This document shows positions 4,162 to 15,928 of a stretch of 64,000 nt of DNA, piece after piece. The number at the start of each line of letters is the position of its first letter. Position 1 is the stretch's first letter. The stretch spans positions 544,001 through 608,000 of the forward strand of contig JAYFMW010000006.1 in assembly GCA_042408215.1 (NCBI GenBank), given 5' to 3'. Both the position numbers and the translations under genes were made by a program. Source of the DNA: Microcoleus sp. Lineage in GTDB: Bacteria; Cyanobacteriota; Cyanobacteriia; Cyanobacteriales; Microcoleaceae. Below the pieces are notes generated by a model. It had not been told where the DNA came from, did no database searches, and worked only from the letters and a program-made list of their open reading frames with translations.

Positions 4162-4954
4162 ATGTCTCAATCGATCGCCCAAGTTGTACCAGAAAAGCAA
4201 ATTGATAATTCCCCAACATTAACCTTTGAAGAATACCGAGTTTACCAAGGCAGATTCTGATGTACAATACGAACTGTACAAAGGCCAATTAATCCCGATA
4301 CCAACAGCAACAGTTTTACACATCAAAATTTGCGAATATTTAGTTTACAAATTGCAGCGTTATCTCGCTGAACACAATCTCGATTTAGTCGTAAAAACTT
4401 CTGTAGGAGTCAGAACAGAAGATGCCACATCCCGCATTCCCGATGTAGTTGTCTGCACAGAAAGTTTGTGGGAACAAGCTCTTGCAAGACCCGGTTCAGG
4501 CATCCTTGACTTTGATGAAACGCCGTTATTAGTGATAGAAGTGGTGAGCCAAGATCGGCGGGCAGACTATATAACTAAACGAGGAGAGTACGAACAAGCT
4601 AACGTGCCGGAATATGTGATTGTTGACCCAGCAGAAAACAGGCATCGGGTGCGACTTATGGCATTTCTCGAAGGTGATGACATTTATACAGAGGTAAATT
4701 ACTTGCCGGGAGAAGAAATGGTATCTGTAGTATTTCCCACTCTTGCATTATCAGTCAATGAAATACTTTGTCCGCCATTGGTGGAAGGGTTGATTAAGGA
4801 AGAACAAGCGCGATTGTTGGAACTCGGACAGCAAGCTGCAACGGAACGCCAACGCGCTGATGATGAGCGTCAACGCGCTGATGATGAGCATCAACGCGCT
4901 GAAAGGTTAGCTGCGAGGTTGCGGGAGTTGGGAGTAGATCCTGATACTGTTTAG
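4162..4954 (+). CDS. Uma2 (DUF820) family endonuclease with an apparent +1 frameshift near 4250
   Basis: N-terminus MSQSIAQVVPEKQIDNSPTLTFEEYR lies in another frame and aligns with paralog 20172-20942; RIPDVVV and LLVIEVVS motifs; coiled-coil tail. Confidence 0.85.
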
Positions 4955-5013
4955 GGGATTGGATGAAGTGCGTGAAGGGAAGCTATCCCGAAGGGAATCG
5001 CCCTTGTTTAGTC

Positions 5014-6474
5014 TCAACTATCCAGCGGTAAATCGCGGAGGAAATAAAAGCGATCGCGCCGCCAATCCTCTCCTTTAATTCGCCCTGCATAGTTTGTCAA
5101 AGGAGAGGAAAGCTCAACAAGAATTTCGTGCAAGTCTTTGGGTGATAAGGGTTTAAGTGCATTAGACATTGCATAAGCACCACTAAGAGCATCGACACTT
5201 GCTCGTTCAAAACCAGTATTTTCCTGATACTTTTTCAGAATAGAAAGAACCTGCGATCGCAAGTTAATTTCTCGTTCAACTTGCTCAATATATTTACCAA
5301 CTTCATCATCAGATTGTCCCGGTTTTAAGTATTCTTTCAGTTTAAATAAGTCCACTGAGTTAGGATAGTTGCTTTGAAGTTTAACCAGTTTTTCAAGCGT
5401 CTCAGGGTTCATAATCGCCATACCGTGTAATTGAGCTGCATCCTTAACTTGAGTAGTTGGAACACCAGGGCCAATAATTAGCTTAGTGACTCTTTTGAGT
5501 AATGCTTCATCTCTCAGGCGTAGGGTTCCTAAATTCAGCAATTGAACTGCTGTATCATTAGGGATTTTTTTACCCGCTTTGCATTCACCAACCAGAGGGT
5601 AAGGTTTTGAGCAGAATAAATCTAAGCCGCCAGCACCACCTTTGTGAGCATAATCTATTGTAAATCCCAAAAACTCAAGGCTATCGCGCACTACATTTTC
5701 AAAGTCGGTTCCTGCTTGATAGTTACTTTTACCCGTATCTTCTTCTTTGCTGCGATTCCCCAAAGCTGCTATAGTGTTGATCCAAGCTAAATCGGGTTGA
5801 ATTGGTTTTACAGGCTTGTCGCTACTCCAACCTAGAAATATTTTGATTTCTGCATCTAGTTGTTTGGCGTTTTGGTTGGTATTTGATAAAAGCGCGATCG
5901 CACTTTGCAACTCTTCCAACTCTGGATGCTCAGGAGGCTCTAGTTTTTCCAGTTGTTTGCGACGTTTAGCAAACAGAAAATCGCTCAAAACAGGCGTTGA
6001 ATCAGTAACATTTAGAGACTTTGGCAAAGATACAAAATTGCTGCTAGATTGCACAGACATTTCAAATGGCTGAGGTAGCAAATAAACCCGCAGGTAAGCT
6101 ACAAAAATAAAAGGACGCTGCTGGAGAATTTGCTGTAATGCCTTTGTTTTCCAGACTGTTAATCGCGACAAAGCCTCTAATGATTCAGGAGCATTCAGCA
6201 TTTGGCACAATTCGCATTTAGCCCAAGCTTTAATTAAAACTGTGTCAGAATTCAATTCAGAAAGTGCCGTTTGGGAAGTGGGCAAAAAACTTGAACGATA
6301 GTGTTGCTCGTGAGGTAGCAAATTAATGGAGATATTGGCTGGATATAGAGCATATGACTGACCATACTCGATAAACACCCGAGGTATGGCTGCAATCATT
6401 CGCCCTTGGATTAAAGCCTCAATATCTGGAGCTGGTAGAAGTAGAGCACTCTCAATTAACACTGATTTCTTCAT
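5014..6474 (-). CDS. DUF1802 (ASCH/PUA-like) domain fused to a PD-(D/E)XK restriction-endonuclease-like domain
   Basis: N-terminal APDIEALIQGRMIA; nuclease motifs GTDFENVVRDSLEFLGF...GGLDL...VGECKAG; start overlaps the ATPase stop (ATGA). Confidence 0.75.
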   Translation of the reverse strand: MKKSVLIESALLLPAPDIEALIQGRMIAAIPRVFIEYGQSYALYPANISINLLPHEQHYRSSFLPTSQTALSELNSDTVLIKAWAKCELCQMLNAPESLEALSRLTVWKTKALQQILQQRPFIFVAYLRVYLLPQPFEMSVQSSSNFVSLPKSLNVTDSTPVLSDFLFAKRRKQLEKLEPPEHPELEELQSAIALLSNTNQNAKQLDAEIKIFLGWSSDKPVKPIQPDLAWINTIAALGNRSKEEDTGKSNYQAGTDFENVVRDSLEFLGFTIDYAHKGGAGGLDLFCSKPYPLVGECKAGKKIPNDTAVQLLNLGTLRLRDEALLKRVTKLIIGPGVPTTQVKDAAQLHGMAIMNPETLEKLVKLQSNYPNSVDLFKLKEYLKPGQSDDEVGKYIEQVEREINLRSQVLSILKKYQENTGFERASVDALSGAYAMSNALKPLSPKDLHEILVELSSPLTNYAGRIKGEDWRRDRFYFLRDLPLDS

Positions 6475-8331
6475 TCCTTACTCAAATTACTAGGAACCTG
6501 ACCAGACGGATCGCTCAAAATTTCACAGATGACATAATTGTCAACTACTAGCTTCTTTCTGGCAATAAAATCAAAAAGTGCTGCCTCAGTAAAATCATAG
6601 TTTTCACGACTGCAATAAAGCGATCGGATAGCTAGAAGAGCCTTGATGTTATCATTTGTCAACTTTACCCATTCCCCACCTAATTTAGGAGACAAAAGAT
6701 CGCTTAAATACCCTTGAGCTTTAGTCGCACCGGGATTAATCTCTTTGGAACGAACTAAGCATCCACGAGTGATATTAAACTTTTTATAGTCGATTAGACG
6801 CTTCAATCCAGCTTGTACACCCATCCCACTAGGTATTTGAAGAACCATTACTCCAATTTTGATGGGGTTTCCATTTTCCTCACCTATGATTTTGAAGTCC
6901 AGACCGTAGCTTTTTTCTGACGCACTGCACCTAATCTTTTCAAGACTAATGATTTTAACATTTTCTAAAGTCTGTCCAATTATGGTGGAGAAGCTCAGCC
7001 AAAGAGCATCAGCTAATGTAATTTTCTCGTCCAGCAAGGTTGTTAGGGAATTTTCAACAGATATAAGTGCCTTGTTATATTCAATTTCAACAAGGTCTTT
7101 TGGTGGTGGTGGATTGGGGGTATCAAGAGTTTTAAAGTTTTCCAAACACCATGTCAACACTCTTCTAGCAGAACTATCAGAATTTCTGCCCAAGTCTCGC
7201 AATTGATTTTCTTCAAAAGGATATATTGGACTATGGGGAATTAAATTGCTTGACTGATAAAACTCTTTCATCCATAGCGAAACTAGCTGAACAATAGAGT
7301 CACCATCCATAAATTTTAATGGGATTGGATCTCCTCTTTTAGAAACTCGATCTACGACTCCACCAGGCATAAGCTTGATCTTCTGTGTCCATGTATCAGG
7401 CATCATTACGGTTAGAATTACAAAACCTTTACTTTGTTCAGAAAGTTGAATGTCATCTACCAAAGGCTTAATTAAACCAGCTATCGCTAGTGGTCTTGTT
7501 AAGCCACTTTCGGGATCAACTCTGTTATCCAAATCTAGTTCATCAAAACAAATAACTAGAGGCTTATATTCGCTAACCAAACTCAAAATTTGCGAAATCG
7601 TCTTAAAGGCTTCAGCATTTTGATATTTCTCTTCTGTGCTAGGATTGGGTAATCCCATAGCATTAGCCCTCACTTCAGCCAAGTTCTTTCCAGATAACCA
7701 CTTAACTGCAAAATCTGAATAGTCTTCTGAGAGTGTCCAAAAAATGGCACGAATAATATCAGGGTCACTGCGTCTTATTCGCCTGTATTTAGTTACCAAC
7801 TCATCTACCCAGTTATTATTTTCGGCTTGACTATATTTTTCCACTACCTTCTTAGCTGAAATAGTCTCTGCATTGGAATTTACATTTCTACCCACTTGGT
7901 TAACCATAGCTGCTGCTAGTTCCTGCCACTGCGTTACCCCTTGACTACCATTGTGATTGAGACTATCGGCTAAAGTTTGTAGAAAGTAATAATTAACAAA
8001 CTTTATGTCGTATGTCTCCACACCTGCATAAATAAATAAGGCACTGCCATCAGCTTTAAGACGATGATGAATACGACTAATAACATGGCTCTTGCCAACT
8101 CCTTTACTAGCTATGATGACCATTGAAGTTACTTTTTCACTGGTTCTTTGAGCAGAATGAACTCGGTCGATTGCCTGATAAACTGCATCCGAAGCATGAG
8201 CATTCAGCGTCGTAACATCAGGGAAACCCTGCTCCCAAACGTCTTGTTCTCTGACAACGGCAGCACCAGTTGGAAATGGGTTATAACTTTGAATAGCTGC
8301 GTTGAGTTCTTCAATTCGAGAGAATAGTCAT
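6471..8331 (-). CDS. P-loop ATPase (AAA+-like); probable true start at 8331, with a +1 frameshift near 8322
   Basis: Walker A ASKGVGKS and Walker B LVICFDELD; frame open upstream to SRIEELNAAIQSYNPF...GFPDVTTLNAHAS; ATG at 8331 is 1 nt out of frame. Confidence 0.8.
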
Positions 8332-8390
8332 AGTGATTTGTGTGAGGTAAAGAACTGAACCAGAATGAAGCTTGAGAAGCTTTATCGTTT

Positions 8391-9118
8391 AAGCTTGAGA
8401 AATTAAGCGCGTTGGCGTAGTAGCGTAATTCACCCAATGACGTTATGATGGAGTCTTCAGCTTTATCAGGCGTGATCTCTGTCATTTCGCCCCCCTGAAG
8501 CAGGAAAAAGCCATTAGCCTGCATTTCCAACAGCCACTCATTAAACTCCGATCGCCCTAACCTTTCCCCGATCGCCCGCCGCATCCGATAAATCGGCACT
8601 AAATCATCTAAGTTATAATCCCGGTTCAAGCTGTCATACACATCCAACGCCACAGCCTTAAATTCTTCATAGGATGCGATCGCCCCTACATCCCCCTTCC
8701 CCGCCTCAACACCAACACCCACCGCACCATCCTGATGCCGAATCCACTTCAACAAAGCATTTCCCAGCCGCGTACCAATTTGAGAACCATCAAACTCAAA
8801 CAGAGAATCCCGACTTTTCAAGCCATCCGCTAAAACTTCTTTCCCCCACGCGCTCAATTCCACCAGCGTCACCCGATTTGACAGCGAATAGACGATCGCC
8901 CCAGCATCCTTTAACTCGTCGAGCACCCCCCGATATCTCTCACTCGTCTCATTAGTACGCACAATCCGCTTAGTCAAATCGCCTTTTTTAACCATCATTT
9001 TGTCGCCGCCCAAATCCCACAAATTCAGCAGCACCCGAACTTTAGCCTTAGCATCCCACACCGCTTGCTCTTCGGCTGTCAAAGTCTTAGACACCGCAAT
9101 TTCATTTTTCTCAGACAT
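8391..9118 (-). CDS. hypothetical protein with probable winged-helix-like domains; ORF runs to 8204 as sequenced, but removing 1 nt near 8413 ends it as YYAKRLISQA*
   Basis: ORF 8204..9118; the tail after LRYYA overlaps the ATPase 5' end; C-terminal LVPIYRMRRAIGERLGRSEFNEWLLEM looks helical/wHTH-like. Confidence 0.6.
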
Positions 9119-9399
9119 ATCTATACCTTCAAATACTTGATCTCACCCTCGAATTATATCATAAATCTTGCTGAAAAAACATCTCAAATTTGCAGCCAAT
9201 TCTACGCGAGGCTGCGAACAACTTATGCAAATTTCCGGCTTAAATACTTTTGTCACTCATCCGCACCCTTAAACTCGATTATCAAAAAAAATAGGATTGA
9301 CTAAAAGGTTGTTTATTGATATAATATGCCGTCCGAAAGTAGCGGGGAGGTGCGCAATGCGCACCCTACAGATAGAGTTTATGCGTCCAGGACTATTTA

Positions 9400-14147: not shown

Positions 14148-15928
14148 ATGCACAAACTTTTATATTTTGCAACTATAGGACTACTAGCTTTCTCGATCGG
14201 AGGATGCGGTGACGGCGGGGGCGGCAACACAGCCAGCCCCAGCCCCAGCCCCGGTGCAACTTCTCCATCACCGACAGCCGCAGCCAGCCCCACCCCAGCA
14301 GCTCAGTCTTTCCCGTCCCCAGTCGTCGCCGCCCAGCCTCCGGGGTTAATTCGATCGACAAACCCGGACGAACGAGCAAAACAGGCTCAAACAGGCATCG
14401 GCGAAAACAAAAACAGCAATCCAACGCTTCCGCCGACGCCGGCGTCACAAAGCCCCCTGACACCAGCCAATCTCCCTCAGATAGACCCCTTTGGGCAACT
14501 TCCGCCGATCGCAGTTCAAACCCCTGCCGGAGTCGCAGCAGGGCCGATGACAGCCAATCCGTTGCCCAAACTGCCACAGCGAGAGGTGGCGATCGTACCC
14601 AAACTGCCCGAGTTCTTGACTCCCCCCCCAATTAACAGGCCTATTCCGACAGCTACTCGCACAAGGCAACCCACAGACCGCCCCAGAGACACTCAGCAAG
14701 TAGCAGGCCGCCCCAGAGACCCTTTACTTCCAGGAGGCAATGGGGCGCAACTTGGCTCGCTGCGGCCAATTCCGGGGCTAAATACTCCTCAGATAGGTCG
14801 CGGTGGCAGAAATGGTTCCTTACCCGGAGGCGAAGGCGCGCAAGTTGGCTCGCCGCGCCAAGTTCCGGGGCTCAATGCTCCGAACTTGGGCCGTCGCCCT
14901 GGACAGCCTGGTTTACCCGGAGGCGAAGGCGCGCAAGTTGGCTCGCCGCGCCAAGTTCCGGGGCTCAATGCTCCGAACTTGGGCCGTCGCCCTGGACAGC
15001 CTGGTTTGCCGGGAGGCGAAGGCGCGCAAGTTGGCTCGCCGCGCCAAGTTCCGGGGCTCAATGCTCCGAACTTGGGCCGTCGCCCTGGACAGCCCGGTTT
15101 GCCGGGAGGCGAAGGCGCGCAAGTTGGCATCCCCGCGCCAAGTTCCGGGGCTCAATGCTCCGAACTTGGGCCGTCGCCCTGGACAGCCTGGTTTGCCGGG
15201 AGGAGATGGAGCGCAAGTTGGCATCCCCGCGCCAAATTCCGGGGCTCAATGCTCCGAACTTGGGCCGCCGTCCAACTTCAACAACAACTACCGGTACGAA
15301 TCCGCAGAATCGCCGTCCAGCACCCCCGCGTCCGCCCCAGCCAATTGCAGCTACACCCCTAGGAGTGCCGAATCTGCCGGCACTACCAGTAGACAAGCGC
15401 CCTCCCCAGTGGAGAGACCCCAATGCCATTCCCAGAAAAGTTACCAGCACTCCTAGCCGTCCAGCTCCCCCGCGTCCGCCCCAGCCAATTGCAGCTAGAC
15501 CCCTAGGTGTTCCGAATCTGCCGGCACTTCCAGTAGACAAGCGCCCGTCCCAGTGGATAGACCCAAATCCCCCGCCTCCTCCGCAGATCCCAGTAGTTCC
15601 TGCGTCGCCTCCACCGCCTTCTACTGACCTCGCTACAGGCACTGAAGTCAGCGGGGTGGTAAAAGTGGGGAATGAGACGCAAGTGATTGTCAGAGTACCG
15701 AATGAACCAACAAGTCGATATGTCAAAGTAGGGCAGCGGTTGTCTAACGGGCAAGTGTTGGTGAAGCGGGTTGATGTCAAGTCAGGAGCAGAGCCGATCG
15801 TGATTCTGGAGGAAAACGGCGTTGAGGTTGCCAAAGGAGTTGGCGAAAAACCCACAAGTCGCGAACCAAAACCGGCCAATGCTGTGATTAGCCGTCTGCT
15901 AAATCCGCATAGCTCAACGCGGCGCTGA
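14148..15928 (+). CDS. proline-rich lipoprotein with a PilP-like C-terminus; two apparent +1 frameshifts in the repeat region
   Basis: lipobox-like SIGGC; LIRSTNPDER; C-terminal VSGVVKVG...VPNEPTSRYVKVGQRLSNGQVLVKR in ORF 15155..15928. Confidence 0.65.
14819..15270 (+). repeat. intragenic tandem repeat of 93-94 bp, about 5 copies (31-aa unit LPGGEGAQVGSPRQVPGLNAPNLGRRPGQPG)
   Basis: near-identical direct repeats; the last two copies read GGCATCCCCGCGCC, 1 nt longer. Confidence 0.9.

Follow-up and report, generated by a model that had tools for sequence, protein, structure and literature searches.

Comparison with Described Systems

Gene neighbourhoods that join an Orc/Cdc6-type ATPase with an ASCH domain fused to a restriction endonuclease (REase) and a DndG-like protein with three domains of winged helix-turn-helix (wHTH) type were described by Rakesh, Aravind and Krishnan in 2024, in one sentence of section 22 of their paper (PMC10853773), unnamed and as a prediction only. 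The same section predicts for this set of domains a role in immunity against selfish elements, and the available part of a follow-up from 2026 (PMC12839542) holds nothing further on the ASCH-REase variant. Here, we analyse a cassette of three genes, called A, B and C, on the minus strand of a 64,000-nucleotide stretch from Microcoleus sp. (assembly GCA_042408215.1, contig JAYFMW010000006.1, positions 544,001 to 608,000), which is referred to as the window. The cassette spans positions 5014–9118 of the window and is an instance of the predicted, unnamed kind. Defence as its role, proposed in an initial annotation, is supported by computational evidence, and the cassette likely fights invading DNA, because relatives swap very different versions of it at one fixed site of the chromosome. 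Its gene order is fixed, the folds of B and C are recognisable with their catalytic residues intact, alleles are exchanged at the fixed site, and defence-type genes replace the cassette in place. The label "undescribed", which the annotation had also used, was too strong, as the combination of domains had already been predicted in section 22; newly added are the link to All4300 and RcaD, the modular structure of the alleles and the swaps in place.

Compared by the description in section 22, the operon and the cassette share an Orc/Cdc6-type ATPase with intact Walker motifs, an ASCH-fused nuclease and a likely multi-wHTH partner, without HerA/FtsK. The partner in that description is a triple-wHTH protein, whereas A looks like two winged helices with weak matches, and C has an extra C-terminal winged helix. 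The operon was called mobile, whereas the cassette sits at a fixed near-core site without plasmid match, although its alleles move between lineages. RcaD-RcaG loci and the Orc/Cdc6-HerA/FtsK capture systems (PMC10853773) have in common with the cassette that RcaD is homologous to A and that a B homolog adjoins it. They differ in the size of RcaD (about 280 amino acids (aa) versus 242 aa for A) and in the third gene, which encodes a nuclease-FtsK protein and not an ASCH-nuclease-wHTH protein; A-B-C contains no HerA/FtsK translocase. Modification-dependent restriction enzymes of the PUA superfamily (EVE-HNH VcaM4I, SRA types) also fuse a PUA-like barrel to a nuclease and have no cognate methyltransferase, but they stand alone with EVE, SRA or YTH readers, whereas here an ASCH/DUF1802 barrel comes with two obligate partner genes. 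All4300/5335, a relative of A, was regarded as a possible transcription factor by Jones et al. in 2009 (PMC2799420) or as a clade signature by Gupta and Mathews in 2010 (PMC2823733), with neither a nuclease gene nor a defence role mentioned in the available parts of these papers.

In line with the initial annotation, no named system was matched in PADLOC-DB 2.0 or NCBIfam 20. NCBIfam 20 yielded only hits below the cut-off (Sll1717 ATPase, 42.7 bits vs 75; DS41_1, 29 vs 370), sequence searches of the PDB gave no named match, and an Atlas search returned unnamed clusters only, with no model of A among its entries.

Distribution and Exchange of Alleles

The cassette is common in filamentous cyanobacteria. 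Of 251 phylum genomes searched for both genes, 53 had A and 56 had C; each was present in 28 of 32 genomes of one family (f7), and both were missing from all 107 genomes of another (f37). Searches by DNA detected A in 24 of 24 congeners. The third gene co-occurs with the first two, the order A-B-C being complete in 68 of 80 loci (the best 80 of 230) and in 34 of another 40 loci drawn from the phylum. Among the 12 incomplete loci, eight end at a contig border or are without flank, two have a PLD-SNF2 helicase instead, one is broken and one consists of A alone. These counts are descriptive, because kin are not independent.

Within the genus, the cassette occupies one fixed site, with a NUDIX or rhodanese-like gene on one side and Uma2 on the other, and A, B and C are each single-copy in the genome of the window. 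At the loci inspected, neither a transposase nor an integrase was found next to the cassette, and B and C had no match among 72,556 plasmids. A defence-island setting at the window locus was considered and ruled out by the neighbours, which are NUDIX, Uma2 and a PAS-GGDEF-EAL-type gene. The cassette was lost or broken in several relatives (L016, L036, L061, L065 and L074).

Variation was measured on 65 complete loci. Mean identity was 80% for the N-terminal domain of A and 47% for the AAA+ module of B, which falls into five allele classes of 5–19 members each; the neighbouring gpmI was at least 83% identical to that of the window (median 91%, 50 loci). Variation is greatest in the A-B block and not in the ASCH reader. 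A's C-terminal domain varies together with B (adjusted Rand 0.84). The nuclease of C comes in three main types, and both nuclease and winged helix of C vary independently of B (adjusted Rand 0.02–0.03). Exchange breakpoints of the allele blocks lie inside A and inside C.

In a quick maximum-likelihood tree of 56 ATPases, 19 Microcoleus rows stood in six places among the alleles of other families, and starred branches force every one of the 6 changes that these rows require. This pattern fits both an old balanced polymorphism and repeated transfer. Against four relatives with the same allele, the ratio of nonsynonymous to synonymous substitution rates was 0.23–0.39 for the three genes and 0.18–0.21 for the nuclease domain. 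The cassette genes are thus under purifying selection within the allele class.

Other genes were found in the place of the cassette, which here are model matches and not confirmed complete systems. In L085 and L086, a truncated A is followed by a BnzB-like gene (PADLOC 4e-62) and a TPR gene; no BnzA match was seen. In L048, an AlbA2-TPR gene and a retron-type reverse transcriptase are flanked by the front half of A on one side and the final 120 codons of C on the other. In three further loci a PLD-SNF2 helicase gene comes after A, which is truncated in L023 and L032 but full-length in L049. This helicase (L023, L032, L049, L156 and L162) is conserved, measures 1083–1097 aa and resembles models of DpdE, DrmD and PLD-helicases only weakly; it is possibly a stand-alone defence gene.

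Domain Architecture of the Three Proteins

C (486 aa, 5014–6474) consists of an ASCH (DUF1802) domain, a helical linker, a PD-(D/E)XK nuclease and a C-terminal winged helix. Its AlphaFold2 (AF2) model has a predicted local distance difference test (pLDDT) score of 82. The ASCH/PUA-fold domain (residues 5–161, 5992–6462) matches Pfam DUF1802 with 4e-31 and structurally resembles CXorf40A (6kir; Z 8.9, root-mean-square deviation (rmsd) 3.9, 141 residues aligned) and a Zymomonas ASCH protein (5guq; Z 8.2, rmsd 3.5, 125 aligned). Catalytic ASCH proteins carry the motif G-x-K-x-x-E-x-R, which is absent from the ASCH domain of C by alignment column counts. The nuclease domain (residues 223–401, 5272–5808) is similar to Nt.BspD6I (Z 13.7, rmsd 3.4, 171 aligned) and FokI (Z 12.8, rmsd 4.0, 149 aligned). 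The match of C to Mrr_cat is weak, and 35 of 40 nuclease-domain members reach this family at E<=0.05. The nuclease motif is intact as first described, with E259, D285, E297 and K299 invariant in 106 of 106 C sequences. The C-terminal winged helix (residues 400–486, 5017–5277) matches that of Cdc6 (Z 10.9, rmsd 2.4, 82 aligned), and many other winged helices follow at Z 8–10. Foldseek placed the same families on top, none of them at E<=0.001. AF2 model and structure comparison together predict for C the PUA-type (ASCH) and nuclease folds that had been suspected and, in addition, the winged helix; the proposed anatomy of an ASCH domain with a PD-(D/E)XK nuclease and an ATPase is supported, and Pfam, PADLOC and NCBIfam searches showed no methyltransferase among the three genes.

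B (619 aa, 6471–8331) is an RcaG-like AAA+ ATPase of the Orc/Cdc6-TnsC type with a C-terminal alpha/beta domain (AF2 model, pLDDT 89). Its AAA+ module (residues 10–408, 7104–8300) contains Walker A ASKGVGKS, Walker B ICFDE and an invariant R388. B matches Pfam AAA_16 with 6.8e-8. In structure comparisons, B resembled Cdc6 (Z 14.9), archaeal Cdc6/Orc1 (Z 14.2) and TnsC (Z 12.9) at rmsd 3.6–4.4 over 232–242 residues. The Walker motifs are intact, G-x-G-K of Walker A and D of Walker B being invariant in 110 of 110 B sequences. At the Walker B position E263, 97 of these sequences have E and 13 have Q, and the latter may slow ATP hydrolysis. One deep allele class (L149–L154, L158, L076–L081) has Q for the Walker B glutamate; in the alignment, the correspondence of Q to class was visible for L018 alone.

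The C-terminal domain of B (6603–7040) is likely an inactive restriction-endonuclease fold without catalytic residues. For the degenerate second nuclease fold that had been suggested here, the order of secondary-structure elements fits and a conserved D or E-x-K is lacking, but domain-level profile tests were blank, so that the assignment is no more than likely. Foldseek with the whole B model gave only weak matches to Nt.BspD6I, at rmsd above 21 Å. For related HerA/FtsK-linked ATPases, PMC10853773 states that the AAA+ core is succeeded by an inactive REase and then by a wHTH; in B, only three short helices follow the restriction-fold-like domain. Profile comparisons of B with C and of A with C were blank. 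Prediction of an A+B complex scored 0.00 and gave no answer, which is evidence neither way.

Some loci have unusual forms of B. L052 (4240–6690) encodes an 817-aa B with a domain like the C-terminal one of SeqA (E 6.6e-5, under the Pfam cut-off), a possible methylation reader. L038 (8498–12992) has the order B-A-B-C, with two ATPase alleles in one cassette that are about 50% identical to B of the window, and L165 has a second B downstream of C.

A (242 aa, 8389–9118) likely has two winged-helix domains (residues ~20–130 and ~140–235), for which the wHTH matches are weak. The C-terminal 100 residues of A are found again, frequently in two copies, in numerous longer proteins unrelated to each other. 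Fusions of this domain with phage portal plus InPase, with ParB and with ferritin-like proteins (P0492, P0486, P0541, P0411) suggest a mobile DNA-binding module that phages use too. A is a member of the All4300/5335 family, because the C-terminus encoded by a published primer, the homolog sizes of 217–245 aa and the RcaG-like downstream gene agree. The reverse primer for 5335 (PMC2799420, Table S1) encodes LRCYAKRL, the C-terminus of A-family members. In the part of that study available, native protein 5335 (All4300) came down on promoter DNA, was described as weakly RcaD-like and had an RcaG-like gene downstream. All4300 also appears in a list of signature proteins confined to Nostocales and Oscillatoriales (PMC2823733, in part).

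Profile comparison further makes A a homolog of RcaD (HHalign 97.9%, E 3.8e-13), and a distant match of the A profile, L087, is 41–44% identical to proteins named RcaD. Matches occurred in 38 genomes, and 21 RcaD-type loci were fetched. A B homolog adjoins in 21 of 21, a PD-(D/E)XK-FtsK gene is next in 18 of 21, and most have a 3'-5' exonuclease; the genome of the window has no RcaD-type match. In the RcaD-type operons L172, L176 and L178–L181, a ParA-like gene (by its N-terminal motif) follows, and L185 has a kinase inside the FtsK protein.

Proposed Mechanism and Alternative Explanations

TnsD-TnsC and Cdc6 loading are established models for the assembly of an ATPase on DNA. By analogy with these, A would bind a DNA site or structure, and B would oligomerise on the duplex with ATP, as TnsC and Cdc6 do. 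The assembled B would then recruit and license the FokI-like nuclease of C to cut nearby, and C's ASCH barrel and winged helix would inspect the DNA, perhaps for a base modification of foreign origin. If ASCH read a foreign modification, a protective methyltransferase would not be needed. Each allele class, whether of the A-B block or of the nuclease, would confer a different specificity that an arms race maintains in the population. On balance, A-B-C is probably an ATP-gated machine that cuts invading DNA. Given a defence role, the odds that ASCH reads a foreign modification are about even.

Several points weigh against this view. A reader of modified DNA is proposed from the ASCH fold, and ASCH as such a reader is itself a prediction in the part of PMC7641849 available. 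The linkage of the C-terminal domain of A with B may reflect adjacency alone. RcaD-RcaG of Tolypothrix PCC 7601 was reported as a transcription regulator, and a GST-5335 fusion of the A-family protein gave no shift of the DNA tested (both in the available part of PMC2799420). A near-core, single-copy location with housekeeping flanks and no plasmid match is unlike most defence systems. No model for A, B or C was found in PADLOC-DB 2.0 at E<=0.1, and no experimental study of the cassette was found in the open literature, with subscription papers, including the original RcaD-RcaG paper, lying outside the search.

A wider interpretation, possible but rather doubtful, sees in the cassette an ancient near-core immune locus of filamentous cyanobacteria, whose several deep allele lineages are balanced across families and whose sensor and nuclease modules are shuffled by recombination, as a bacterial counterpart to a locus like the major histocompatibility complex or like that of nucleotide-binding leucine-rich repeat (NLR) proteins. 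In that case, the sister pair RcaD-RcaG would have been misread and would be a defence loader, and ASCH/DUF1802 would be a reader of modified DNA of a new type.

Among the alternatives, an abortive-infection switch is unlikely but fares best. A-B would sense a phage protein or replication structure in the manner of STAND ATPases and free C, which would degrade the host DNA so that the infected cell within the filament dies; this would be defence, but neither restriction nor modification-dependent. The fastest change in the C-terminal domain of A and in B, not in ASCH, the resemblance of B to NLR ATPase modules (Z 11–12), the substitution of retron and Bunzi-like genes for the cassette and a range of mainly filamentous groups (own survey; PMC2823733, in part) would agree with this. 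However, B has no recognisable repeat sensor domain, the accessory domains are all DNA-binding types, and the best fold matches of B, namely Cdc6, ORC and TnsC, act on DNA.

A housekeeping function, in which ASCH detects bases that are damaged or alkylated, or A-B acts as a transcription regulator like the one proposed for RcaD-RcaG, and C is a repair or processing nuclease, is quite unlikely. The near-core, single-copy, fixed site, the listing of All4300 as a Nostocales/Oscillatoriales signature protein (PMC2823733, in part), the promoter DNA on which native 5335 came down (PMC2799420, in part) and the homology of A to RcaD speak for it, but identities of 28–47% between congeners at one locus are atypical of housekeeping genes, and the cassette is replaced by retron or Bunzi-like genes and lost or broken in several relatives. 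A selfish addiction or allele-drive module, with a nuclease attacking DNA or cells without the matching allele and alleles spreading by recombination between conserved flanks, is very unlikely, as the exchanged allele blocks with breakpoints within A and C and the TnsC-like ATPase are set against the lack of any transposase or integrase seen alongside at the loci inspected, the single copy, the lack of a plasmid match and clean losses.

If cleavage of invading DNA is true, most filamentous cyanobacteria would possess an obstacle to phages and genetic engineering that is unannotated and escapes PADLOC and NCBIfam. A testable role is gained for DUF1802 and for the clade signature All4300, a system known from prediction only is now tied to tractable strains, and RcaD-RcaG, long seen as pigment regulators, are reopened. 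The defined allele classes permit direct swaps to ask what sets specificity.

Gene Calls and Minor Observations

The listed open reading frames (ORFs) bear out that the three genes share the minus strand and the same orientation, and the reported ATGA coupling is present, with the B stop overlapping the C start at 6471–6474. The extents of A and B had to be revised. An A of 304 aa (8204–9118) and a B of 550 aa starting at 8123 are products of extra single bases at 8414 and 8322; corrected, A spans 8389–9118 (242 aa, allowing for the base near 8414), and B starts at ATG 8331 (619 aa, allowing for the base near 8322). The true genes are most likely A 8389–9118, B 6471–8331 and C 5014–6474, because relatives and run contigs are without the surplus bases. 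One base near 8414 and one near 8322 are absent from four of four relatives with the same allele. A metagenome contig (run X5) with one other differing letter in 298 lacks the single bases at 8322, 8352, 8374 and 8414, and a contig of run X3 lacks base 8322, both contigs being of low depth (4.3 and 2). The four surplus bases in 8322–8414, two of which frameshift A and B, are likely assembly errors. The open frame of B extends 68 codons upstream of the listed start, and A measures 237–244 aa in relatives. Pseudogenes as an explanation for A and B were judged unlikely, with the surplus bases absent in relatives and in an independent contig and a run X1 contig equal to 6216–8287 with one difference. 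A base at 9173 is missing in all four runs compared.

B is AT-rich as noted before (GC 39.1% vs 45.1%; lowest 3% among 1.86-kb windows of the genome). Its description as HIP1-poor did not hold up: B has zero HIP1 sites, but so do 33% of genome windows of equal size, which is not significant (genome density 0.69 per kb). The genome is cyanobacterial, and its closest named homologs are from Microcoleus. Scans for promoters and terminators in the sequence were at chance (10 vs 8.8 and 5 vs 3.7).

Short dispersed repeats at about 4966–5006 of the window (and 4389–4440 of a DNA query) border C at its 3' end and are found again in many places in the genome of the window and in related genomes. A proline-rich gene at 14148–15928 on the plus strand contains a 93-bp tandem repeat of 4.7 copies (14826–15267) and is seemingly broken across several frames, possibly by further assembly insertions.

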